A stretch of DNA of 64,000 nt from Candidatus Saccharimonadia bacterium (lineage in GTDB: Bacteria; Patescibacteriota; Saccharimonadia; UBA4664): the NCBI GenBank assembly GCA_041743505.1, contig JBGTMQ010000008.1, positions 69,183 through 133,182 of the forward strand, written 5' to 3'. Under the pieces are notes generated by a model. The model did not search any database. It was not told where the DNA came from and worked only from the letters and a program-made list of their open reading frames with translations. This document shows positions 41,020 through 58,152 of the stretch, in pieces; positions within the stretch are counted from its first letter, which is position 1; each line of letters starts with the position of its first letter. The position numbers and the translations under genes are program-made.

Positions 41020-41094
41020 GCCGACGTAGCTCAACGGTAGAGCAACAGTTTTGTAAACTGTAGGTTGCGGGTTCGATTCCTGTCGTCGGCTCCA
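41020..41094 (+). tRNA. tRNA-Thr (anticodon UGU), CCA encoded
   Basis: Acceptor GCCGACG/CGTCGGC, anticodon stem ACAGT/ACTGT with loop TTTGTAA, T-loop GGTTCGATTCC. Confidence 0.7.
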
Positions 41095-41196
41095 GAAGTT
41101 GTAATTATACTCTCTTCCACCACTAGCTTTCATTCAGTCTTTATCAAGGGTCTTATTAGTATTCTCGAGCTGCCGGACCCTACCCCCGAGCAGCTT

Positions 41197-42102
41197 GTGG
41201 CCGTTACCACCAGTGCCATCGCCTTAGGCAACCATACCCTCCTAGACAGAGCCCGAAAACTTATCACACCCCGTCTCCAGTCCACAGCAATCAATACCTC
41301 AAGCGAAGACTTTCAGGTACTCAGGCATATCTTCGCCGCTTCAGACCCATTCGCATTGGTGCATCATCGCACCACACCGGCTGGCTTCGGGCTCCAGTAT
41401 AACGAGCTTCGAAGCTTCCGTCCCCGGCGCGAGTCCACTACTGCAACACCAACTGTGCACCGGCCATTCGAACCAGCAAAATTCAATTTTACACACATTT
41501 CAGGAGAGCGGTACTGGCAGGGAAGCTTTGGGAACAAACTGCTAGCTTGCTACTACAACAAGTATCCGTTTGCGCCATACCATACTTCACTTGTACCGGA
41601 TCCAGACAGCGACCATGAGCAGTTTCTAACTCAACCTTACCATGAACTAGCCTGGAATTTCCTACAAGCACTGGCCGGTGAGCAGCCAAAGGCCGTGCTC
41701 GGCTATAACTCTCTTGGCAGTTATGCCTCCATTAACCATCTCCACTTTCAACTCGTAGCTGATGGGCACAAGCTCCCGTTGTTGCACTCAAAGAACCTTA
41801 CTACCTATCCCATACCGGTAACCGAGCACCAAAACATCCAAACTGCTTGGCGTCAGATAGCTCACTTACAAGCCACTCAGCAGCCGTTTAATCTCATCTA
41901 TAGCGCCGGCCGGATGATTGTCATTGAACGGCAATTCCAGGGCACCTACCCACAACCAAACTGGACCACCGGCTTTGCCTGGTATGAATTATGCGGCGGC
42001 ATTATCACGGTCAGCGAGGACGCGTTCGATCGTATCACCGACGACGATATCACAACCGCCCTACAAACCACAGTTTCCGTGGCTAAAGCCTTGTCCAGTT
42101 AA
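41197..42102 (+). CDS. hypothetical protein; possible HIT-superfamily GalT-branch (HxHxQ) nucleotidyltransferase/phosphorylase
   Basis: INHLHFQLV (H-phi-H-phi-Q). The track ORF (41065) overlaps the tRNA and has no ATG after the tRNA end; GTG at 41197 was chosen tentatively. Confidence 0.4.
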   Translation: MAVTTSAIALGNHTLLDRARKLITPRLQSTAINTSSEDFQVLRHIFAASDPFALVHHRTTPAGFGLQYNELRSFRPRRESTTATPTVHRPFEPAKFNFTHISGERYWQGSFGNKLLACYYNKYPFAPYHTSLVPDPDSDHEQFLTQPYHELAWNFLQALAGEQPKAVLGYNSLGSYASINHLHFQLVADGHKLPLLHSKNLTTYPIPVTEHQNIQTAWRQIAHLQATQQPFNLIYSAGRMIVIERQFQGTYPQPNWTTGFAWYELCGGIITVSEDAFDRITDDDITTALQTTVSVAKALSS

Positions 42103-42145
42103 GCAGTTTGTTATACAATAGCCAGGTTAAAAACCAAATTAACCG

Positions 42146-42231
42146 GCCGGGTTACTCAAGTGGCCAACGAGGGCTGACTGTAAATCAGCTGGCATTAGCC
42201 TTCGGGAGTTCGAATCTCTCACCCGGCACCA
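42146..42231 (+). tRNA. tRNA-Tyr (anticodon GUA), long variable arm, CCA encoded
   Basis: Acceptor GCCGGGT/ACCCGGC, anticodon stem GCTGA/TCAGC with loop CTGTAAA, T-loop GGTTCGAATCT. Confidence 0.7.
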
Positions 42232-42311
42232 TATCAAACATTGTGTATACAACAGACTGATGCAGTGCAAGGAATGACGAAGCAATGCGCAGGCTGTTGG
42301 AGACACGCTAA

Positions 42312-42386
<75 letters not shown>

Positions 42387-42411
42387 TGAACAATAAGGAA
42401 TTATCAAGACT

Positions 42412-42609
42412 ATGAAACGGCTTGTACGAAGCGAAAAGGATAAAAAAGTTGCAGGTTTATGCGGCGGTATTGCCGAATACGCCGATATTGACCCAACTGT
42501 CGTTCGTCTTATTGTATTAACCGTTATCATCATGAGCGGCGTCCTGCCTGGTATCTTACTGTATGCAGTGGCCGCCGCTATCACCCCCAAAGAAGGAGAA
42601 GTAAAATAA
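42412..42609 (+). CDS. PspC-domain small membrane protein
   Basis: KKVAGLCGGIAEYADIDPTVVRLIVLTVIIMSGVLPGILLYAVAA matches the PspC domain consensus. Confidence 0.7.
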   Translation: MKRLVRSEKDKKVAGLCGGIAEYADIDPTVVRLIVLTVIIMSGVLPGILLYAVAAAITPKEGEVK

Positions 42610-42771
42610 ATGCCTAAACGTAACCGGCCATTCGTGGCTTTGGAGTGCACAAGTTGCCATAACCGCAACTACACCACCTCCAAAAACCCCAAAAACACCA
42701 CCGATCGCCTAGAACTCAACAAGTTCTGCAAGCACGAGAAAAAAGTTCTGGTTCACAAAGAAACCAAATAA
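42610..42771 (+). CDS. rpmG: 50S ribosomal protein L33 (below the ORF-track size cut-off)
   Basis: [53 protein letters not shown], with the C-x2-C...C-x2-H pattern of L33. Confidence 0.8.
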
Positions 42772-42920
42772 TCTCTCCGCATCAGCGGATATAAAGTATG
42801 GGGCCTGGCTTCCAAAGGAGCCAGGCCTTTGTGGTCAACAGAACTCCAGACAGTATCTACTTAGCATGGACGCAAGTCACTACCCTAAGTATACTAACCG
42901 TAATAACATGAGCCTCATCC

Positions 42921-43871
42921 ATGGCCGAAAACCTCCAGCCAACTAGCGAACAAGAGCCAGACACCGGCTTTCCCCAAGCCGCCAAGCTACTAGCCGGCCT
43001 AAATGAAGCACCTCGACCGGCAATCCCCATGCCGCGTGCACCAAAAAAACGCCCGGAACTGCAACAGATTGATTTAGCCAACAAGCTCAGGCCAATCTAC
43101 CAGGAAGGAACTCAGTCAGAGCACGGCCATAACGAGCCACAAATACAAGAGCTGGCCGAACAGTACCAACTCAAATACCCCAACGAGCTTGAGGCTATCA
43201 CCATCCTCACTAATGTGCAGTCTTTCCTCGAACTCACCCAGCGTGTCAAAGATCCAGAACTCAAGCGGGAAGAAAAAAAGCCGCTTTTCAAGGAATTAAC
43301 CGAATATCAGTACCTTTGGACGCATTTTGTCATTACCAACTCTGACAAAACCCGGGTCATGGAGGACTTCTGGGAGGCTACCCACCGTATTGCCGAATCA
43401 GCCGGCTATGCAGAACCAGCCCGGGCATACCAATCCGGCATTATCACAGCCGCCGCCACCTATCAGATCTTTGAAGCTCTCGGCAAACAGCCACAATTGT
43501 CGCACCCTGCCGAGGACGCCTATGATGCAATTGATCTTTGGATTGACGAAACCAATCAACCCGTCCAAATCAAAAAAAGTAACGCGTCAGAAGTCGAAAT
43601 CGAAAAAACCGAAGACATAGAATTCCCTGCCCTAGAAGTAGCCGGCCCAGCCGGCCACACGCAGCATTTTGCCATCGAACAGCCAAACAGGGAACAGATC
43701 CAATTCAAGATGAACATCAAGCGATACGCCGAGCGTGTCGGTCATCCCGTGGATGGCTATTTTATACGCGTACCGTATGGACAGGTTGATTCCACCACCG
43801 GAAAACCGACACCAGAGCTAATCGAGCAAGTCCGCGCCAAACTCGCCGCCGAGGAACCCGAAGCAGCTTAA
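42921..43871 (+). CDS. hypothetical protein (316 aa)
   Basis: ORF track only. Confidence 0.45.
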   Translation: MAENLQPTSEQEPDTGFPQAAKLLAGLNEAPRPAIPMPRAPKKRPELQQIDLANKLRPIYQEGTQSEHGHNEPQIQELAEQYQLKYPNELEAITILTNVQSFLELTQRVKDPELKREEKKPLFKELTEYQYLWTHFVITNSDKTRVMEDFWEATHRIAESAGYAEPARAYQSGIITAAATYQIFEALGKQPQLSHPAEDAYDAIDLWIDETNQPVQIKKSNASEVEIEKTEDIEFPALEVAGPAGHTQHFAIEQPNREQIQFKMNIKRYAERVGHPVDGYFIRVPYGQVDSTTGKPTPELIEQVRAKLAAEEPEAA

Positions 43872-43921
43872 ACTCGACTAAGCCGCTTAAATTAAGTACA
43901 ATAAGCCGGTCATAACCATTT

Positions 43922-43997
43922 AGGGGTGTAGCTCAGTTGGTAGAGCACCGGTCTCCAAAACCGGGTGTCGTAGGTTCGAGTCCTATCACCCCTGCCA
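43922..43997 (+). tRNA. tRNA-Trp (anticodon CCA)
   Basis: Acceptor AGGGGTG/CACCCCT, anticodon stem CCGGT/ACCGG with loop CTCCAAA, T-loop GGTTCGAGTCC. Confidence 0.75.
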
Positions 43998-46101: not shown

Positions 46102-49100
46102 ATGTTTCGATTGAGAAGCGTCCGGCGACTCGTACGTCAAAGTTCTATGGCTGCTAGTCGCCTTTTAAGTATAAAATTAATAGCAGCCTTGAAAGAACAT
46201 AAATTCAAGCAACCGGTAATTCATCTTTCAACAAACCCGTTTAGGGCGATATTAACACGCAACACCCTCAATATACTTGCCGTTGGCGTATTTTTTCTCA
46301 ATATTACCGCCATAGGTATTCCGGGCCTTATGGCCCAGTGGCAGGAGAAGGAGGCCCGAACGCCTCAAGCTCTTCAAGCTACGGATAATGATTTTGCTGC
46401 AGCCGCAGACGGCGCTAGTACCTCAAATAAGGCGTTAAAACTCGATAAAGCCGTAACAGATGAACTCGATAAGACGCGAGAAGAACTCATTCATGGTAAG
46501 GCAAAAAAGAATCCTAAACGCGTAAAAATGCTCGAAGAAGACCGTGACGTCAACTCCCGCGTTTTCTTAAATGACGATGGCTCAAAAACCCTAGAGAAGA
46601 GCACCTCTGCCACCAGTTACCGTGACAGCTTAGGCAAATGGAAAGACGTGGATGTCTCACTTGAGAAGGATTCGGTTAAAAATGAATGGAGTACAAAATC
46701 CAACTCCTGGAAGGCAACTTTTAAGGAAGCCAACGCTGAAACTGCAGTTGAATTATCACGTGGGGCACAAACTGTCCGCATTGCACCGGTAGGAGGCCAA
46801 AAGGTCAAGCCGACAGTAACTGGTAATGCGCCAAAACAATTAGTTACTTATAAAAACGTCTGGCCTGACGTCGATTTGCGTTACGTAGTAAATGGCTCGT
46901 CAGTAAAAGAGAGCATTTGGATTAAAGCGCCAACACAGCAAACAGAGTTTCAATTCAGCGTTAAAGGAGGCAACCTTTCGCCAAAGCCCGGTGAAACTGG
47001 CCGCTACAGTCTTGATGGGGAACTGTCTGATTTCACTCTCACGCGTTCATTTGTTGCCACAGCCGATCAGGGCATAGTGGGGGATGACGGATATATTACA
47101 CAGGATGTAAAACAAAACAGCATAATCCTAAAACTTAACCCGGAGTGGATTAAGCAGCAACCTGCTAAAGCATATCCGGTTGTCATTGATCCTTCCTTTA
47201 CTAGCTACACAACCGCACAAAACCATATGTCCTTTAAATCTGATGGCTGGTCATGCAACGCGCTCGACTGCGGAATAGGCACTGGCTACACAGGATCTCA
47301 CCAGTGGCGTAGTATAGCCTGGTTTCCCTATGACACCCTGGGACAAGCACCCACTAAGCACCTCACCAGCGCACAACTGTACTTGGAGATGGTTGACCCG
47401 GGAGTGATCAGCTACCCGGGTACCTATGACCCAAGGACAATCTCAGTCTATAAAGGCCAACGCGGCAGTAATGGTCATTATAATATAAACAGCGGCGTAA
47501 CTGATTATGGCATGGGTAGTGGCTCCATAGGGTACAACGGCACTATTGACGTTACAACTATATATCGCAATGCAATTGCAAATGCCGACTGGGGTATGCA
47601 TCTGTTCTTTGTTGGTGATGAAAGTCAGTATTCATACAAATTTAAGACATATCCAGATGCAAAGGTAACGTTTACCTATACTCACTCGCCGGGAGCCGCC
47701 ACACTCGAAGCACCCACAGATAAAGCATCTGTAGTTACGTCTCAACCTGTACTAAAAGCGAGCACCGCCACTGACCCCGATGGAGATCCGGTGCGGTACC
47801 GCTTTAAAGTGGCCACCAGTCCTGATGCCGAAGGTGGTACGGTAGTGAATTCGGGCTGGCTAGACACTCCGCAATGGACTGCTCCGGATGGCTCACTACA
47901 GGATGGAATGACATACTATTGGAAAGTTCAAACGTGGGACGGACTGTACATTAACTCATTTGGTACAGCAGGCTCCTGGAGCACCAGTTCAATCAGATCG
48001 TTCCGGGTTGATATGCGTAAAGGCAAAGACAATACTCAGGCCTATGACGCTGTCGGACCAATTAATGTCGATCTTGCTACAGGCAATCTAACAACAGGAA
48101 CAAAGAGCCACAGCATAGCTGCGCTTGGTGGTTCACTCGGCGTGAACCTGGACTACAACTCACCTCAGCGTTCACGCCCGGGCCTGATAGGTAAGTATTG
48201 GAATAATCCCACGCAGGCCGCAACATTCCCATCATCCTCAACCGCAGCTAGCGTAGAGCGGGTTGATGGCGTGGTTGACTTTAACTGGGGCAGCGGTTCG
48301 CCCGAGCCGGCCACTGTAACCACGGATAATTTTCTTGTCCGCTGGTCAGGTTATTTTGTAGCGCCGCAAGCTGGCACATATCAATTCGGAACCACCAGCG
48401 ATGATGGTGTACGCATTTACATCAATGACCTCAACACGGCATATGTTGATCAATGGAGTACTAGCCCAAGTAACATATATGGCGCAAGCGTGACGCTCGC
48501 GGCTGGTCAAGTAATTCCAGTTAAATACGAGTACCGTGAAGTCGGCGGACTGGCAAATACCAAGTTTCTCGTAAAAACGACTGATAGCTCTATTACTGCG
48601 CAACCTATACCAACTTCATGGCTGCAAACCGGCACACGATCTGTGGCGGTAGAACATGGACTCACTGGACGATACTTCGCCTACACAGGAGACAATCCGC
48701 CCGCCTCTCCATCAGATAGTGATCCAAGCCTATTCCTCAAACGCACAGATAGCAGCCCGTCATTCTATTGGAATAGTGCGGCCCCGGTATCTGGCGGGCC
48801 AACAGACAGGTTCTTGGTTCGTTGGACAGGTTATTATACGCCGGATGTGACAGACTCCTACCGATTCCGGATTGCAGCCGATGATGGCGTACGCATGTGG
48901 GTGAATAATCTTATTACGAACACGCAAGTTATTAACGACTGGGCAGATAATCCAGGCACGCGTGAGCAAGCCACGCCTATTTCACTAACCGCAGGGCAGT
49001 CCTATCCCGTTACAATCGAGTATTATGAGCACATTGGTAGCGCCATTTTCGACCTGCAATATAAAGGTTCCGATGGGATTTCTAAGGCCGTTCCATCTAA

Positions 49101-52100
49101 GTTGCTTAGCCCTAAGGTTCAAACGTTGCCCGACGGCTGGACGCTTGGTGGCGATATAAAGGGTGATCTGCCCTACGACTTTGCCCATATCGGCGCAAAT
49201 TCGGCAGTTCTCCAGGACACGAATGGTGAGTCGCATGAGTATAAGTGGACTGGCGCATCATACATTTCTCCTCCGAACGAAGACGGGCAGTTAACGCGTA
49301 ATGATGATGGCACCCTAACACTGCAGGCTGGCGATGGTCGCACCTACATCTTCGGGACAGATGGCAAGCTTTTGTCATCAACCTTACCAGCGGATGACAA
49401 AAATCCAGCTGCCGTTCAATACGAATATGGCCTGACGCCTTCTCGTCTCACTAAAATCAAGGACGGCATCAATCTTAACCGTTACGCTGAGTTGATTTAT
49501 GCTGGTGATAGCCGTTGTCCAAGTGCGCCAAGCGGATTTGTTGGAGCCAATGGCACAATGCTGTGCGCCGTCGTAACAACCGACGGCTCAACCACTACTC
49601 CGACAGATGCTAACATAACAAAGTTCTTCTATAGCGCCGACACCGGCGGCAACAAGCGTTTAGCCCGAGTAGTATCACCCGGAGCCGAGACAAGCGACTT
49701 CTCATACCTCACGGAGGATATTAACTCGCCAAACTCATGTTCTGGTTGTCTAAGTCAAATCCGCGACGCGATTGCAAATGACGCTGTAGCAGCAGGTGAA
49801 CGGTCACAAGACGCCACCGTAATGACTGAAATTGCATATGACGCGTTAGGACGAGTTATGAGCATAACTGGCCCAGCGGCACAGGCCGGGATAGCTCGAT
49901 TGGCCCACACTTACGAGTATCAAGCTGGCCACACGAAACTTCATACTACTGGCGCCACGGAGCCTAATGGCTTTACCCGGAAGGTTACATATGACAGCAC
50001 GTATAGGACGACAGAGGACCGCGATGCAGCCAATGTAGCTACATCAACCGAATGGGATGCTGGTAAAGACCAGGTTTTGTCATTAACGGATGGCGCTGGG
50101 CTTAAGAGCACAACGCATTACGACTACGCCGACCGGATAACCGACCAGTACGGCCCGGCCCCGGCCGGTTGGTTCGATATGACTCCTGGTACGAATTATA
50201 ATAAGCCTTCATCGGGCTATATCAATCAGATCCCACGTAAGCAAGCCAGCTATGACGAGGGCATTAACGGCCTCGCTGCCTCGTACTACACTTATAGCAC
50301 TAGCAGCAAAGCTCTAACGGGCGCGCCTAAGGGGCACCAAACAGGCATCGGCGGCACCGGCGGTGACGTAAATAAAAACTGGGCCGGCACGGCTCCATTC
50401 ACCACTTCATCACCATGGGGTGCGCGATTAACCGGCGATATCCTGTTGGGCGCAACCGGTAACTATACCTTCCGCATAGCCAGCGATGATGGAGTGCGGC
50501 TCTGGATTGACGATAAGCTCGTCATCAATGACTGGGCTGACGGCAGCTACCGCTCACATACCCAGCTCACAGGTGTGACAGTCAATAATGACACAGCCAA
50601 TAAGTACCATCGCATTCGCCTCGATTATTACAATAAAAGTAGTTCGGAGTCAGATGCGCAACTAGTGCTCTATATGACACCGCCAGGCGGCTCGGAGCAA
50701 TCCGGGCTCGGCAGTATTCTTGTTCCTCGCTATGGACTCGCAACAACTGCTAAAAACTACGACTCCTCCAGTAGCGTAGGTGATACTACCATCGCGACTA
50801 ACTACGGGAACAACCCAGAGCTAGCACTGCCGCAGTCTAAGACGGTTGATCCCGGAACGGGCACATTGAATCTTGCTAAAACCGCTAGCTATGAAACTCA
50901 GGGCGCAACCGGTAGTTACTTACGTCAACTCGGCACTGTACTGCCAGGCGGAAGTTCAACGAGTTATGGCTACTACTCGGCCACGGAAGTAAAAGATAAC
51001 CCTTGCACAACTGGCATTACCGAAACGTATGTGCAGGCCGGCATGATGAAGCTAAAGACACAGCCAGATCCTGATGGAGCCGGCTCTCAGGTCGGACGAA
51101 AATCGGAATCCATATATGACAATGCAGGACGAATAGTTGCCGCTCGTTACAATGCCGATTCATGGACATGCACAACCTATGACAACCGCGGCCGAGTAAC
51201 CCAAGTCTCAGTACCGAGCATAAATGGTCAGCCCGGCCGGACCATCACAACGAATTGGGCCGTAGGCAGCAATCCATTTGTAACCAGTATCACCGATAAC
51301 AACGGAACGGTAACTACAACTTCAGACTTATTAGGCAGAACAGTCATCTATCAGGACTCTCTCGGTACCTGGACCGACTACTCATACGATAGCCAAGGCC
51401 GCTTGATCAGTAAGGATAGCGATATGGGCTTAGAAGAGTTCGTCTATGACAGCTATAACCGGCTAACTGCGCAGAAGCTTGATGGCACAACGCTCGCAGT
51501 ACCGACGTATGATGCTTATAGCCGCATCACGAGCGTGACCTATCCGACGGCTGGGGCACAAGCTTTATCCATCTCACGGAATGACCATGGTCGCACCACA
51601 GGCTTAGATTACACCCTTGGCAACGGGTCAACGCACCTAACCGATTCCATTACACGTAGTCAATCTGGCAAGGTTGTAGGCGGTACAGAGTTAGGCCAGA
51701 CTAAGAGTTACACTTATGACAAAGCAGGCCGCCTTACGGCTGCGACTATCGGTTCGAACCAATTTACCTATAATTTCGGAGCCCCCACTGGCTGCTTAGG
51801 CGCCTATAACGCCGATGCGGGCAAGAACGCCAACCGTATAAGTATGAGTAAAACCGTAGGCGGAGTAACTACATCTACTTCTTACTGCTATGACTATGCT
51901 GACCGGTTGATCCAAAGTTCAGACTCCAACGCTGTAGACCCAGCCTATGACTCACATGGAAACCTCATAAATATGGGAACTTCGTGGAATGGCAAGTACA
52001 CGCAGTTCGCATATGACTCAAGTGATCGCAATATTGGTGTTCTTCAAAACTGGGGCAATGATTACGATATATATTACAACCGTGACGTTCAAAATCGCAT

Positions 52101-53166
52101 AACCTCAAGATTCGTTGCAGGCCTCAGTACAAGCTCAACCTGGTATGGTTTCACAGGTGCCAGTAGTGCGCCCGCCTTTACTCGAAATGCCAATTGGGAT
52201 ATTACAGAGAAGTATATGTCGCTCCCTGGCGGCGTACTATTAACCGTACGTCCCGGCCAAACTGGTGATAACCAAAAAGTATTCTCACTTCCCAACACTC
52301 ATGGTGATGTGATGGCTACCACCAACACGAGCGGCAACCAAACTGGTACGTTTAGCTACGATCCGTTTGGACAGACCCTAAGCTCAAGCATACCCGACAA
52401 TGCAGCAGGAGATGTCTCATTTGCTTGGGTTGGCCAACATCAAAAAGCCACTGAAGCAGATTTGGCGCTTAGGCCGATCCAGATGGGAGCTAGGGTGTAC
52501 ATTCCTTCACTTGGGAGATTCTCGAGCACAGACTCTGTAGAGGGTGGTGCCGAGAACGCCTATGTCTACCCTCCCGATCCAATTAATCTGTACGATATCG
52601 ATGGGAAGAACACGGCAGAGGAGGCCCTGGATGGTATAGGCGCCAGCGCAAATAGTGTTGGCTGGAAACTCGACGCACTCATGGTGGCCGTAGGTGTCGC
52701 ATGTGTAGCCAGCGGAGTCGGGGTAGTCATTTGTGGCGTAGGAGCCGCAACCGGTCTAGTTGTAACGACGGCTCAAGCATACAACAAGCACAATCGAGAT
52801 CCTGGCGCTGCAGCTGGAGAATTATTTCTATCAAGTATTTTCTGGGCAGCAGGTGGACCAATAGCTAAAAACATTGCTAAAATCAGCATCTCCTACATTG
52901 CTCCTGTCATTGCGCAGCGAGTAAAGCAGGTGGCGCCCGCAACGCCAATACGTGCAATTAATCGAACAGTGGCTACTGCAAAGCAGACTATACGGAACTC
53001 AATAGGTTATGCTGCAACCCTGTACGATGCGGCACGCCATATACCAGCTGCAAATCGGAACTATAATTATGGTGGAACACCCTATATGACAAGCCCATGG
53101 AGCGGGTATGCGGAGGTAAAAGAAATGATTCTGAAACACTTGGCTAATACGTGGAGAAGGGTATAA
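46102..53166 (+). CDS. giant polymorphic toxin: N-terminal signal-anchor, three PA14 domains, RHS/YD-repeat shell, RHS core ending DPINL, C-terminal glycine-zipper toxin domain
   Basis: GGAGG RBS. PA14-like segments start at ~48181, ~48658 and ~50269, each with the FLVRW(S/T)GY...DDGVR(I/M/L)(Y/W)(I/V)(N/D)(D/N) pattern. Many YD repeats ([29 protein letters not shown]...). RHS core tail ...[39 protein letters not shown] at ~52480-52605. The C-terminal 186 aa contain [26 protein letters not shown]. Confidence 0.9.
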
Positions 53167-53484
53167 ATGCGAATCTTTCCGGATAGATCCAGAAACTATA
53201 AAATCAAGGGGTGTGTTTGTGGAGAAACCAATGAGTCACTCAAGGTAAATAAGAACATGTATCATAATACGATCTTTCTATCTCTACTTAGTGTCCCGGT
53301 TATTCTGGGCTTTCCATGGGTAAGCCTGCACACTGATTTAGGTACAAAAGGTATAGTTGCCTGGGGGCTGATTCTAATTGTCTTGGGTTTTTATACATAC
53401 GGTACTACAAAGTTACTTGGTAAAGGCCATTCCTTGTTATGCTCTGTTCGACGAACAATGATTAATTTTGGAGCATTAACCTAG
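53167..53484 (+). CDS. putative cognate immunity protein (two-TM, CxCG...GHxLLCxxRR family), paralog 1
   Basis: Start abuts the toxin stop (TAAATG). MRIFPDRSRNYKIKGCVCGE..., two hydrophobic helices, ...GKGHSLLCSVRR. Confidence 0.65.
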   Translation: MRIFPDRSRNYKIKGCVCGETNESLKVNKNMYHNTIFLSLLSVPVILGFPWVSLHTDLGTKGIVAWGLILIVLGFYTYGTTKLLGKGHSLLCSVRRTMINFGALT

Positions 53485-53504
53485 GCACCAAATAACAGAT
53501 GTGA

Positions 53505-53888
53505 AGCACTGGCTCACACGACAATACGTCCGATGGCGCATTTGTAGGTGAGGCTGGGCTGGGCCTACTATTTCTTGGACTAGGCGGGGAAGGAGCAAAA
53601 CAAATAGCTAAGATAACAATAAAGCCCATCGCAGCCAAAATAGCTCAGACAGCTCGCCAAGTTGCACCAAAGATAACCATAAACAATAAGGTTGTCGCCG
53701 TAAAGCAGCGCATCCAATATACAATTGGATATGGTGCAACAATAACAGATACATTACGTCAGATCTGGCCCAGCAAGCCGGTTTATAACTATGGTGGTAC
53801 GCAGTATATGACAAGTCCTTGGAGCGGCTTAGCGCAAGCAAAGGAAGTCATTATGAAATACTTAGCTAAGGCGTGGAGCGGGGCTTAG
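53505..53888 (+). pseudogene. orphan, start-less toxin C-terminal cassette paralogous to the last ~105 aa of the 46102-53166 toxin
   Basis: Frame-0 translation ...GGEGAKQIAKITIKPIAAKIAQTARQVAPKITI...[35 protein letters not shown] aligns with the toxin end ...[29 protein letters not shown]...[35 protein letters not shown]. No start codon; the frame is bounded upstream by a stop at 53502-53504. Confidence 0.7.
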
Positions 53889-53889
53889 A

Positions 53890-54217
53890 ATGCAAATATT
53901 CCCAAATCGCAAAAAAAAAGCAAAGCGTTACTTCATGTATTTGTGGGCGGTCTAACGAAATGCAAAAGATAAATAAAGCGAAATATCACAATATGACCCT
54001 ATTAATCAGTATGGGCCTAGTTGGTTACCTAGGTGCATTAGTGATTTTCCCGATGTTACTGCAGTCGCCCCGAGGTGTTACTACGAGAGGATGGATTGCC
54101 TTCGCCATAGGCACTTGCATGGTAGCGTATCTGATCTTCCTTGTCAGAAAAAATACAAAGCAGGGCCACAAATTACTTTGTTCAATGAGAAAATCCATGT
54201 TTCAGCTTGCGAGTTAG
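53890..54217 (+). pseudogene. immunity-family paralog 2 interrupted by a frameshift in an A9 homopolymer (53911-53919)
   Basis: ATG at 53890 reads MQIFPNRKKK, then hits a stop after 21 codons. The -1 frame continues ...KQSVTSCICGRSNEMQKINKAKYHN...QGHKLLCSMRKSMFQLAS. Removing one A restores a 108-aa paralog. The track's intact ORF needs a GTG at 53873 inside the preceding cassette. Confidence 0.6.
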
Positions 54218-54264
54218 CCGAGCACTCCTAAGTGCTCAATGTAGCGAGCACCACTTACACTAAG

Positions 54265-54543
54265 ATGAAAATATTTCCCCTCCCTTTAACGAAATATCCT
54301 CTAGACAAGGCGCTCAAAGAGATTAAGTTGTTCTTGGCCATTGGTTATTCAATACTTGCCTTAACGGTGTTCGTAAGCATATTCTTCGCATTGCCTGCGA
54401 TGGTGGTATGCGGTCGTCCGCTCGTATTGTGCTTTAATCCCGCTGTCAAAAAGCATCCAGATGGTAAAAAATACATGACTGCGAGTGTTGTGTTAGCGGT
54501 CCTATCGGTTCTATGCTTTGTGGTGTATCTAATAGTCAAGTAG
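54265..54543 (+). CDS. small two-TM membrane protein (MKIFP... N-terminus, distinct core), putative immunity paralog 3
   Basis: Internal Met start MKIFPLPLTKYP chosen by analogy with the paralog N-termini. Two hydrophobic helices. Lacks the GH.LLC motif. Confidence 0.45.
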   Translation: MKIFPLPLTKYPLDKALKEIKLFLAIGYSILALTVFVSIFFALPAMVVCGRPLVLCFNPAVKKHPDGKKYMTASVVLAVLSVLCFVVYLIVK

Positions 54544-54593
54544 CATTCTCCGCACACTACTTACATTTATATAAAGTTTAAGCAGCTGATAAC

Positions 54594-54914
54594 ATGAAAT
54601 TTTTCCCAGACCGTTCAAAAAAATATAAGCTAAAAAAATGTGTATGCGGGAAAGAAACCGAAAATGTCAAAGTTAACAGGAGCATATATCATAACGTAAT
54701 TCTATTTACGATAATTGGCGTTTTCGGTTTCCTTCTCTTGACCGTAATCAGTTTCTATACTCCGTTGCCTACTGATTCATGGATTGCCTGGCTGATTATG
54801 GCAGCAATACTTAGCTATGATGGATGGCAACTGTGGGTTAATACCCAACAGGGACATAATTTATGGTGCGCACTGAGAAGGGTCATGATAAGTGTTGCAG
54901 GAGCTAAAGACTAG
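54594..54914 (+). CDS. immunity-family paralog 4
   Basis: MKFFPDRSKKYKLKKCVCGKETE..., two TM helices, ...QQGHNLWCALRR. Confidence 0.65.
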   Translation: MKFFPDRSKKYKLKKCVCGKETENVKVNRSIYHNVILFTIIGVFGFLLLTVISFYTPLPTDSWIAWLIMAAILSYDGWQLWVNTQQGHNLWCALRRVMISVAGAKD

Positions 54915-54994
54915 AAAGACTCACAGAATACTTGAGCTTACAGCTATGATAATATTTTCTCATGCTTGCCAGACATCGAAATAACTAGCTCGAC

Positions 54995-55420
54995 ATGAAT
55001 AGCCCTGAAATTCTTGGCTGGATTATTTTTTGGCTTGGAACGTTGTTATTCACGGTCTTCTGTATTTATATTGCACTTCGAATAAAGGGTAACAAAGATC
55101 GTGAGTACACCGTTCGCCCCTGTATTTGCGGTCGCCGCGCCCCCTCAATCAGTTTATTCGCAGGCAATGGTTCAGGCTGGGCCGGATTCATCATTCTATA
55201 TAGCCTAATGGCGATATTACCCGCATTGTATATCGTAGACGCAACGAGTTTTATGCTGATTGAGATCCCCTGGTATTTATGGTTATCCTTGGCCCTATAC
55301 CTGTCAGGAGGTCTTGTCCCCCTTATTAAGTTCATCACTTGGGGCCATTCGCTATTGTGCGCATTACGCCGGGGACTTCTTGGCCTCGTATGGTTTTTTC
55401 ATTACAGCCACAAACACTAG
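54995..55420 (+). CDS. immunity-family paralog 5 (extra N-terminal TM helix)
   Basis: ...RPCICGRR... then TM helices and ...WGHSLLCALRR. Confidence 0.55.
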   Translation: MNSPEILGWIIFWLGTLLFTVFCIYIALRIKGNKDREYTVRPCICGRRAPSISLFAGNGSGWAGFIILYSLMAILPALYIVDATSFMLIEIPWYLWLSLALYLSGGLVPLIKFITWGHSLLCALRRGLLGLVWFFHYSHKH

Positions 55421-55522
55421 ATCCAATAGCCTTTGCGCTGTATCTAGCAGCCAAGTACACATTCGCGTGCCTGTACATGCGGCATATCAAAGGAAAAGCT
55501 TCAACGAAACCGGGCAATACTG

Positions 55523-55741
55523 GTGTTACAAAGTGGCTTGTTTATTATTGCTCTTCCAATAATACTTTCGCTGCTTATCTTTCTCGACTGGAGAGAAATG
55601 CTAAGTAAACTTTGGTTCGCCTACATATTCACGGCCGGGGAAGTCATTGCGCTCGTAATAATCGCTAGACGCTATCGACGCAAGCGTCATGGAACAATCT
55701 GCGCGCTACGCCGCGCACTTATCGCTATGTCGCCCAGATAA
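55523..55741 (+). CDS. immunity-family paralog 6 (short, C-terminal motif only)
   Basis: Two hydrophobic helices then RHGTICALRRAL. Confidence 0.45.
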   Translation: MLQSGLFIIALPIILSLLIFLDWREMLSKLWFAYIFTAGEVIALVIIARRYRRKRHGTICALRRALIAMSPR

Positions 55742-55810: not shown

Positions 55811-57097
55811 GTGGATGACTCCGCAACGACCGAACTCATTCGGTTAAACGCACTATGCGGCAAAAATATTGGTGCCTACATGAACCAAGTCCGCCGCATC
55901 CCATTCCTCATCCCTCAACTACAACAGGACCTAGCCACCATAGCCCAGGAAGGAGTTGAGGCCGAGGAAAGCCTGGAGAAGTGCCTCAAGGGCAAGCGCA
56001 CATTGACATCAGCCCAACGAAAAAGCCAATGGTACACTCGGCTTCAACGCCAAATCATCGCAGGCAAAGAGGCCCAAATCCGCCTGGTCTACCATAATCT
56101 GCGCTTCGCAGCCTACTTTGCCCGCCATTCCATGGGCTGGAAACAGCATTCCGATGATGAGTTCATTACTGAGCTGAACTTTGGAAAACCACGTGGTGGA
56201 GCGCCGCTACACACCCTGGATATGTTTGCGGGCAATTCATTGCCCCTGGAAGATAGGATACAGGTAGGCAATCTGTCGCTCATCAAGTCAGCCGGCAAGT
56301 ATCAACCATATTGCGGCGAGAGGATAGACCCGGTCACCGGAGCAAAAACCACCAAGCCCATCGCCAAATTCACGACCTATGCCGCCCATAACCTCTACGA
56401 TATGCTCCACCGGGCGTTTATGGTCGAAAAGTACCGTGACGGGCTATCACTCAGCTTGGCCAGAAGTATGCACCAAATGCAGGCAGCACGTAAAAAGCTC
56501 CGACGGCTCACAGGCTACGAGCCGTCCATCAATGAACTGGTGGACGACACCGATCTTGGTTACAAAGCCGTCGAATTTCGTCTCGAGGAGGAATTTGGAT
56601 GTCCCAACACCACGCTGGAAGAGCTAGCCACCACCACCTGGGTCCACGACCTCGCCACCAACGCCCGGCTGGGCCTGGCGGACCTGCTCTGGGATGACAC
56701 CATCCTGGACCCGCACGACACGCTCATCGAGCTTGATCTGCTAGATAGCATAGAGCGGGTTCTGGGCACCCTGTCAGAGCGCGAAGCCGGCGTAATTGCC
56801 TTGCGGTTTGGGCTTCGCGATGGCGAGTGCCGGACACTGGATGAGATTGGTTATGTCTATGGCGTAACCCGCGAACGCATCCGCCAAATCTTGGGCCACA
56901 CCATGACATTGCTTCGCCACCCGTCGCGAAGTAATCAATTGCGCAACCACTGGTGTGAGCAAGACCCGCTCGAAGAGCGCGATGAGCGCCGCGAAGCCAA
57001 GGAACGCCGCGACCGTACCATCACGCTCCTCTCGCATCCGCATCTCTACCCGGACACCATTAAGCCAATAGCCAAGCACAGGGCTAAGGCCAAATAG
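55811..57097 (+). CDS. sigma-70 family RNA polymerase sigma factor, highly divergent with insertions in region 2
   Basis: Region 1.2-like YMNQVRRIPFLIPQLQQDLA. Region 2.1/2.2 IRLVYHNLRFAAYFARH ... DRIQVGNLSLIKSAGKY. Region 2.3/2.4 FTTYAAHNLYDMLHRAF. Region 4 LSEREAGVIALRFGLRDGECRTLDEIGYVYGVTRERIRQILGHTM. Basic/acidic C-terminal tail. Confidence 0.75.
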   Translation: MDDSATTELIRLNALCGKNIGAYMNQVRRIPFLIPQLQQDLATIAQEGVEAEESLEKCLKGKRTLTSAQRKSQWYTRLQRQIIAGKEAQIRLVYHNLRFAAYFARHSMGWKQHSDDEFITELNFGKPRGGAPLHTLDMFAGNSLPLEDRIQVGNLSLIKSAGKYQPYCGERIDPVTGAKTTKPIAKFTTYAAHNLYDMLHRAFMVEKYRDGLSLSLARSMHQMQAARKKLRRLTGYEPSINELVDDTDLGYKAVEFRLEEEFGCPNTTLEELATTTWVHDLATNARLGLADLLWDDTILDPHDTLIELDLLDSIERVLGTLSEREAGVIALRFGLRDGECRTLDEIGYVYGVTRERIRQILGHTMTLLRHPSRSNQLRNHWCEQDPLEERDERREAKERRDRTITLLSHPHLYPDTIKPIAKHRAKAK

Positions 57098-57207
57098 ACC
57101 TTCATCCATGCAAAAAATAGCCGCTCTCCAGGACATTACGTCTTGAAGTGCGGCTTTTCAATTAATAAAGTGGCCCTCACTGGTTGCGAGACCCCACTTG
57201 ACGGAAC

Positions 57208-58152
57208 CTAATCAACGCTCTCTTCGTCATCGATATCGGTACCGTTATCTCCAGTTTGCCCATTATCAGGAGCACAGGCTGTTAGCCGCAAGCGGCGGCG
57301 CGCAAACTTGGCCTCAAGCATCTCACGAGTCTGGAAGAACTTATTGCCATGCCAAATCTCCGCCAGCGACGTATCCTGCACATTACCCACCGTCAACCAG
57401 CGCGAGAACACGCACGGCAGAACATTACCGGTACGGGTGATAGCCACCACGCTCTTAACGCAATGCCCACAGAGCTCGTCGGTAGTAGCACACAGGCTGC
57501 GCTCTCCGCGCCCCACCTGCCGCAAATGATCCATCCGGATAGACTTCTCGAACACCCCCAGAGACATGAGATCCCTGCGGGCGCCGGCACAATCCTGGCC
57601 ATTGCCCGAATCAACAATCCCAACCCGCAGCCGGATATCCCGGCGAAGTGCCTCAATAATATTATCTCTAGTCCGCCCATGGCTGCCACGCCGCTTGGTG
57701 ATAGCGTCATGCTCAGTGGCAATGCTCGAATGATAGCTCGTAGCAACCCTCACGCCCGGGAGCGAGAAAACCTCCCACACCTCCGGCTCGACGAACATAA
57801 GGTTGGTGTAAACCTCTACCTTGAGCTCACACGAAAGTGCGTAACGAATCAAAGACGACAGGGAAGGATGTAGTGTCGCTTCACCCCCAATGAACTGCAC
57901 CATATCGGCGCCAAGTACCTTAACGTCACGAATCACCCGCCGCCAGTCGTCATCCGACATGCTACCGTGATTGCCACGAGGGCCAGCGTTCAGGTAGCAG
58001 ATAGTACACTCTTCGTTGCACTTGTCGGTAATCTCAAGCCACGCGAACTTGAGTCCCGTGCTTGCCGTCTGCGACCTTGCTTCTTCTGCTACCAGTGCAG
58101 TCATAGCGGTCCTGCTTCCTATTGGGATGGATAGAACACAATGCCGGCCCAT
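57208..58152 (-). CDS. radical SAM enzyme with C-terminal SPASM/twitch-like Cys-rich domain
   Basis: CNEECTIC (C-x3-C-x2-C) SAM-cluster motif. C-terminal LCGHCVKSVVAITRTGNVLPCVF... Confidence 0.75.
   Translation of the reverse strand: MGRHCVLSIPIGSRTAMTALVAEEARSQTASTGLKFAWLEITDKCNEECTICYLNAGPRGNHGSMSDDDWRRVIRDVKVLGADMVQFIGGEATLHPSLSSLIRYALSCELKVEVYTNLMFVEPEVWEVFSLPGVRVATSYHSSIATEHDAITKRRGSHGRTRDNIIEALRRDIRLRVGIVDSGNGQDCAGARRDLMSLGVFEKSIRMDHLRQVGRGERSLCATTDELCGHCVKSVVAITRTGNVLPCVFSRWLTVGNVQDTSLAEIWHGNKFFQTREMLEAKFARRRLRLTACAPDNGQTGDNGTDIDDEESVD

Follow-up and report, generated by a model that had tools for sequence, protein, structure and literature searches.

A start-less copy of an Rhs toxin tip, probably the remnant of a displaced module and not a poised switching cassette

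'C-terminal displacement' and orphan modules were reportedly described by Jackson in 2009. Within the rhs-CT/rhsI and cdiA-CT/cdiI systems, an orphan module consists of a start-less tip fragment with its own immunity gene, which lies 3' of a full-length gene and the immunity gene of the latter, as part of an array; its tip is related to the tips of full-length proteins and is usually unrelated to the tip of the main gene beside it (PMC3150448, PMC3967940). Documented orphans retain the boundary motif together with the conserved sequence upstream of it (Poole 2011, PMC3150448), and orphans that recombine use this conserved sequence, shared upstream of the tip (Poole 2011, PMC3150448; Koskiniemi 2014, PMC3967940). 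Loading of orphans onto main genes was demonstrated experimentally in Salmonella (Koskiniemi 2014, PMC3967940) and was proposed for CDI/Rhs (Poole 2011, PMC3150448). A second body of work concerns effector displacement by homology-facilitated illegitimate recombination, a route proposed for Rhs loci and for the T6SS clusters of V. cholerae (PMC5361080). There, a new module replaces the end of the effector, and the old immunity gene, sometimes with the old effector 3' end, is shifted downstream, which leaves a shifted-back effector 3' end and an immunity-gene array where effector remnants are few or absent (Kirchberger 2017, PMC5361080). Finally, within a group of CDI ionophores the toxins show moderate similarity, and identity among the immunity proteins is no more than about 30% (Halvorsen et al. 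2024, PMC11630599).

Here, we analysed an Rhs locus in a 64-kb stretch of DNA, called the window below, in which a sequence-only reading had recognised an orphan toxin cassette between two immunity genes. The features concerned are the following.

46102-53166, forward strand: main toxin gene for an Rhs/YD-repeat protein of 2354 aa (ORF; Pfam PA14 at E 2e-61 in three stretches, RHS_repeat at E 1e-14)
52576-52605, forward strand: 10-residue boundary motif of the DPxxL type, main residues 2159-2168, at the border of core and variable tip (aligned with DPINSSDITG of P0001 and DPVNSFDLDG of P0004)
52576-53166, forward strand: C-terminal tip (CT) of the main protein, 196 aa (hydropathy, AF2)
53167-53484, forward strand: P1, immunity-type membrane protein of 105 aa, whose ATG abuts the rhs stop (invariant CxCG...GHxxxCxxRR in the family alignment)
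53505-53888, forward strand: the orphan, a start-less, 5'-truncated putative CT remnant of 127 codons and TAG (blastp and tblastn to the main tip)
53784-53883, forward strand: the nucleotide tract in which orphan and main CT agree best (repeat search: 100 nt, 77% to 53062-53161)
53890-54217, forward strand: P2, immunity paralog paired with the orphan (start MQIFPNRKKK, typical of the family, out of frame with the body)
54265-54543, forward strand: X, membrane ORF of 92 aa that begins MKIFPLP as the family does (without the Cys/His motifs)
54594-54914, forward strand: P3, intact immunity paralog of 106 aa (38% identity to P1, E 1e-26; no toxin remnant 5' of it)
54995-55420, forward strand: P4, paralog of 141 aa with an additional N-terminal TM segment (family alignment)
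55448-55741, forward strand: P5, 5'-eroded paralog at the far end of the array (CTCG and the C-terminal RHGTICALRR kept; two stops in place of the MxIFP N-terminus)

The main gene fits the layout of an Rhs polymorphic toxin: RHS/YD repeats, a boundary motif, a variable tip and a small abutting immunity ORF. Its product carries an N-terminal membrane anchor or signal-like segment, three PA14 domains and RHS repeats. The core just before the boundary motif is conserved with the Rhs C-terminal fragments P0001 and P0004, and divergence sets in past the motif.

Between P1 and P2 the forward strand holds an open frame of 127 sense codons followed by TAG (53505-53888), with two in-frame stops immediately 5' of it (GTK-stop-QM-stop-STGSHD). 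Its only canonical in-frame starts are the ATG codons 102 and 117, no ATG, GTG or TTG being present before codon 102, and the near-cognate start codons lie in an unconvincing context. The frame is therefore start-less, just as the sequence-only reading had it. The ORF listing of the window contains none of at least 40 aa in this frame, the gene callers used on two assemblies did not call it, and no promoter-like site was found at its 5' end, in 53480-53520. Directly 5' of the frame and in phase with it, 53499-53504 reads ATG and then TGA, where a single base change would yield an ATG-initiated gene of 129 codons; this is probably a coincidence, since no SD-like sequence lies within 5-12 nt of ATG 53499. 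The frame does not appear to be open by chance, since only 14 of 20,000 nucleotide shuffles of the orphan were stop-free and each of its other five frames contains 4-14 stops.

When the orphan frame was compared with the last 250 residues of the main Rhs protein, blastp gave 61 identities in 121 positions (50%) with one 3-residue gap (E 1e-34). The match covers main residues 2231-2351, the last 121 residues of the alignable main tip (nt 52792-53154, forward strand), and includes the conserved 13-residue block of the main tip. The orphan tip was also matched by profile to P0001 and P0004. A tblastn search of all six frames of the 64-kb window with the orphan recovered the main tip (E 4.6e-31) and found no third copy. 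The frame is thus a diverged copy of the upstream toxin's end with the block retained, as had been claimed; formal alignment shows the protein similarity to be significant, and only the length required correction, from about 105 homologous residues to 121. Its reported position between two immunity paralogs is also confirmed, P1 and P2 being homologous (32% identity, E 2e-19). Along the forward strand the order is rhs (46102-53166), P1 (53167-53484), the orphan (53505-53888) and P2 (ATG at 53890), with 20 nt between P1 and the orphan frame and 1 nt between the orphan TAG and the P2 ATG.

Both tip/immunity junctions, main/P1 and orphan/P2, are built alike. The sequence TGGAG(A/C)(A/G)GGG lies in the last tip codons, about 10 nt before the immunity ATG, and the spacing from the CT stop to that ATG is 0-1 nt in both modules. 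The SD-like TGGAGAAGGG for P1 is located within the final rhs codons, and P2, a member of the immunity family directly 3' of the orphan stop, has the SD-like TGGAG upstream. Since the junction is conserved in both modules, CT and immunity gene would form one translationally coupled unit that is copied or moved together.

Compared with the orphan rhs-CT/rhsI and cdiA-CT/cdiI modules (PMC3150448, PMC3967940), the locus agrees in having a start-less tip fragment with its own immunity gene, 3' of a full-length gene and that gene's immunity gene, in a tip related to those of full-length Rhs proteins and in forming part of an array. In this broad sense the designation as an orphan CT/immunity module stands, the more so as orphans of the same tip family occur at two other loci (see below). 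The orphan differs in three respects. Its homology begins at main residue 2231, 72 residues past the boundary motif at 2159, and it lacks the Rhs core, the DPxxL motif and the first 72 tip residues, which include the only strongly hydrophobic segment. Its tip belongs to the family of the main tip (50% identity), unlike the usual rhs/cdiA orphans, and its immunity gene is frame-broken.

An exhaustive HMMER search with the tip family among 1.84 billion representative proteins yielded only four true tip homologues; comparative power is low as the family has only these four other members. P0005 and P0006, obtained in the same search, are repetitive proteins and were rejected as false positives. 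A word-indexed protein search with the main tip gave no match, and a search with a six-sequence tip profile matched P0003 alone. The latter (112 aa) starts exactly at the truncation point of the orphan and was considered as a second truncated orphan; it was rejected because the gene was called from an internal Met, in a tip that is cut short by the end of its contig. Scans of genome contigs with the tip pair and with the core-tip junction were both negative, as were scans of metagenome contigs with the tip pair and with P0002. Three loci with members of the tip or immunity families were informative.

L002: a tip end, then an immunity homologue (543-854)
L004: an immunity gene, a start-less frame (53 residues of Rhs core, the motif and a full tip) and the start of another immunity gene
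L005: a tip, an immunity gene in two frames, a frame with 140 residues of core, the motif and a full tip, and an immunity gene (1791-2093)

L004 and L005 are metagenomic loci carrying orphans of the same tip family, and these orphans begin at main residues 2106 and 2019, respectively, against 2231 in the window. The tip family thus appears to form canonical orphans, of which the copy in the window would be a more deeply truncated version. In L005, two frames share the immunity gene that separates the first tip from the orphan (512-791), through either decay or an assembly error.

The genes P1, P2, P3 and P4 are homologous, with identities of 25-38% (E 1e-6 to 1e-26). Across the family, including the homologues in L002 (543-854) and L005 (1791-2093), residues C16, C18, G19, G87, H88, C92, R95 and R96 (P1 numbering) are invariant. 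No match for the family was found in Pfam or NCBIfam. The AF2 model of P1 contains two TM helices, 29-55 and 61-85 (pLDDT 67), whose hydrophobic pattern is kept in seven homologues, and the invariant Cys/His residues flank this two-helix membrane hairpin. The arrangement suggests that the C-x-C...H-x3-C residues may come together as a metal site at one membrane face. Close homologues of P4 (47-58% identity) occur on short contigs, at L003 1742-2167 and L008 367-783, with no Rhs or tip nearby; the P4 subfamily is accordingly not always toxin-linked. The contig of P0011 carries a second PA14-Rhs with a P4-like gene 4 kb downstream.

The frame of P2 is interrupted by a run of nine A residues (A9, 53911-53919), which causes the mismatch between its start and body; a run of eight would give a protein of 108 aa. 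An alternative GTG start at 53873 would open an ORF of 114 aa. The A9 run is also present in assemblies L001 and L007, and P2 could have become a pseudogene recently or could depend on slippage for its expression, as a phase-variable gene. X shows no significant similarity to the immunity paralogs of the window and may be a very divergent family member or an unrelated insertion. From P2 to P5 the intergenic gaps are 15-100 nt, which leaves no room for more tip remnants in the array.

The sequence evolution of the orphan was compared with that of the main tip. By codon position the two tips show identities of 0.66/0.66/0.34, with 55% over all nucleotides. The Nei-Gojobori estimates are pN 0.33 and pS 0.78, the latter being saturated, which argues that essentially all of the tip divergence was built up while the protein sequence was constrained. 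Relative to four outgroup tips, 12 unique changes fall on the orphan branch and 10 on the main branch, and the orphan frame contains zero stops and zero frameshifts. The lack of rate acceleration and the intact frame both point to a recent silencing. A start-less fragment could not stay open through saturating divergence; this indicates that the orphan belonged, until recently, to a working gene or is still selected for its coding capacity. Main tip and orphan are each other's nearest relatives (50%, against 31-40% to other tips) and share a tail, consisting of the 13-residue block and a 7-residue insertion, which is absent from all other homologues.

Taken as a whole, the locus is best explained if the orphan is an inert 3' remnant of an Rhs tip that was formerly fused to rhs, was paired with P2 and was displaced by a newer module, and we consider this reading probable, with appreciable doubt. 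According to it, a related tip-plus-immunity module, the present CT and P1, would have been installed at the end of rhs, anchored via homology in the conserved rhs core. The right end of the incoming module, being non-homologous, would have been joined inside the resident tip, that is, by homology-facilitated illegitimate recombination. Such an insertion would have taken out the first ~72 codons of the resident tip and shifted its remaining 121 codons, together with P2, downstream. The remainder of the array may represent older rounds of displacement, and its members could be read as an erosion series, from the remnant with frame-broken P2, through the immunity-only X, P3 and P4, to the 5'-eroded P5; cells would keep the immunity genes of such arrays and not the toxin fragment. 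Like the displacement products of V. cholerae (PMC5361080), the locus combines a replaced effector end with a shifted-back 3' end and an array of immunity genes. Unlike in that system, the delivery system is an Rhs protein bearing PA14 domains plus an N-terminal anchor, no T6SS genes were seen in the window, all the immunity genes of the window are from one family, and the displacement history is one that we infer from the locus itself and not from a series of strains.

The identities among the immunity proteins bear on where the newer module came from. The window paralogs are 32-38% identical to each other and 32-35% identical to the L002 immunity protein, which comes from a different organism. 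Since the paralogs of the window are no nearer to each other than to the one from L002, acquisition is favoured over local duplication under Kirchberger's criterion. Two points count against parts of this explanation: sister tips with a unique shared tail would equally fit an old local duplication, and the intact 127-codon frame could also reflect ongoing selection for coding capacity. No strain was found with a full-length rhs carrying an orphan-type tip.

The local alternative would be a tandem duplication of the CT-immunity module in situ, followed by long divergence and a later 5' deletion in the downstream copy, without any horizontal displacement. The sister relationship of the two tips with their unique tail (the 13-residue block and the 7-residue insertion) is what this history would produce, and so is the conserved architecture of the junctions. 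We nevertheless regard it as unlikely. Synonymous saturation, an intact frame and equal branch rates would require both copies to have been functional nearly throughout their divergence; P1 resembles P2 (32%) no more than either resembles an immunity protein from a different organism; and the orphans of the relatives carry core fragments, which is a signature of displacement and not of a duplication of the tip alone. Whether displaced or duplicated, the remnant is most likely inert now. It would be neither translated nor delivered, because a promoter-proximal start, the boundary motif and the hydrophobic domain are all missing.

For RecA-dependent exchange about 20-30 identical bases are required, and such exchange drops steeply as divergence grows. 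These requirements bear on the proposal, made in the sequence-only reading, that the orphan is a substrate for C-terminal displacement, that is, a silent reserve cassette that would switch the specificity of both toxin and immunity by recombining into the main rhs. The longest exact run shared by rhs with P1 and the orphan with P2 is 11 nt, TATATGACAAG, far under the length needed, and at 23-45% divergence exchange is effectively excluded. Alignment of 52.9-53.16 kb with 53.5-53.9 kb, where a recombination-prone tract was expected, gave none of recombination grade. The best tract, 53784-53883, is the only one of at least 77% identity; it encodes the conserved 14-residue stretch and, further on, a W, contains the SD-like TGGAG of P2, and lies at the extreme 3' end of the orphan. 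A crossover there would retain the body of the main toxin, lose P1 and fuse the gene to the frame-broken P2, and thus it would not import the orphan toxin.

A reservoir cassette would nonetheless account for several features of the locus, namely the orphan-type position with a paired immunity gene, the intact frame without relaxed evolution and the occurrence of orphans of the same family elsewhere (L004, L005), and orphan loading itself has experimental precedent in Salmonella (PMC3967940) and was proposed for CDI/Rhs (PMC3150448). Set against these are, besides the 55% nucleotide identity, the lack of the core-coding sequence and boundary motif used for reloading, the loss of the first 72 tip residues with their hydrophobic segment, and the broken frame of P2. 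Moreover, two assemblies built from different read sets match the window at 100% and 99.993% identity over the whole locus, A9 run included, and therefore contain no variant in which main and orphan tips are switched. We thus hold an active reservoir to be quite improbable. The orphan appears, from its sequence, not to be a credible recombination substrate or a poised switching cassette, and this part of the earlier reading is not supported.

Still less probable, to the point where we give it very little weight, is expression of the orphan alone as a small protein, either a stand-alone toxin fragment or a modulator. Translation might begin at ATG 53499 and read through the TGA, use a non-canonical start or follow a single-base reversion, and the immediately adjacent in-frame ATG-TGA, the intact frame and the metagenome contig of P0002 (a lone tip gene of 164 aa followed by genes of 104, 112 and 105 aa, with no adjacent Rhs called) could be cited in its favour. 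However, the ATG has no SD within 5-12 nt, no promoter-like site lies in 53480-53520, the gene callers on two assemblies omit the frame, and the orphan has neither an export signal nor the hydrophobic domain. The orphan would gain an ATG start if TGA were read as sense; such recoding was considered and rejected because TGA terminates four of the 41 long ORFs of the window. The other stops of these ORFs are TAG (20) and TAA (17); TAG as the commonest stop is unusual for a bacterial genome of 53% GC.

The intact frame and unrelaxed evolution would also suit a silent donor of the pilS type, whose gene conversion would swap the specificity-determining middle of the tip while P1 is kept and the A9 run, through slippage, phase-variably supplies the matching P2 immunity to just a part of the population, but with a single copy in 64 kb, a best block of 77% over 100 nt and exact runs of at most 11 nt, nucleotide identity makes this reading highly improbable, and just as improbable is its specific form, a rare, non-reciprocal conversion between GG..AK.IAKI.I and the conserved 14-residue block.

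As to what the tips do, the main CT contains a strongly hydrophobic Gly/Ala-rich segment at residues ~27-69 (hydropathy maximum 2.53, window centres 36-60), followed by a part of ~120 aa that is predicted to be helical. The AF2 model of the main CT is an all-helical fold, though at pLDDT 35.6 the model is unreliable. The main tip has this one hydrophobic stretch of ~40 residues, and hydropathy analysis of the orphan tip gave no segment at or above 1.4. No match for the main tip was found in Pfam, NCBIfam or PDB sequences, PDB giving only chance hits to ribosomal protein L30. In its Gly/Ala-rich segment and predicted helical tip, the protein resembles the CDI ionophore CdiA-CTs (PMC11630599) and glycine-zipper toxins such as EsxX (PMC12744356), and its partners, like the immunity proteins of membrane-depolarising toxins, are predicted to be small integral membrane proteins. 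The identities of 50% between the tips and 32% between P1 and P2 also parallel the pattern of the CDI ionophores. From the setting in an Rhs gene, the hydrophobic segment, the membrane partners and this identity pattern, we infer that the main tip may act as a membrane toxin and that the small membrane proteins would be its immunity. Two differences stand against the likeness. For the main tip, no similar sequence was detected in Pfam, NCBIfam or PDB, and the invariant C-x-C...H-x3-C signature of the immunity proteins was not found described for CDI ionophore or glycine-zipper systems in the literature searched. Toxin tip and two-helix immunity protein with this signature together appear to constitute an undescribed and extremely rare family.

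The rhs locus lies in a chromosomal housekeeping region with genes for EF-G, EF-Tu, SecY, RpoA, MurC and HolB. GC3 is 0.36-0.50 throughout the rhs locus, compared to 0.65-0.74 in the housekeeping genes, and the locus (46102-55741) is consistent with a horizontally acquired island. A finer contrast, GC3 of 0.36-0.37 in the new module against 0.43-0.45 in the old one, was discarded, being within sampling error at ~100-125 codons each. Three tRNA genes (41020, 42312 and 43922; within 41020-43994) are found a few kb upstream of the locus. Just past the array, 55811-58152 holds a divergent sigma-70 family protein of 428 aa with a weak resemblance to the defence-associated sigma factor MzaA, and a radical-SAM/SPASM enzyme on the opposite strand.

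The orphan is a degraded orphan toxin/immunity module, and the arrangement itself is known and ordinary. The locus contributes little to what is understood of toxin switching. It offers a clear and well-preserved instance of what effector displacement would leave behind, and for its lineage and its toxin family nothing of the kind had been described. The two modules are a natural pair, with tips 50% identical and immunity proteins 32% identical, for the study of how specificity is encoded. If displacement took place as proposed, the truncation 72 residues inside the tip means that its right-hand join can fall within the toxin domain and not in the core alone, and for this reason immunity-only arrays may begin as such remnants.
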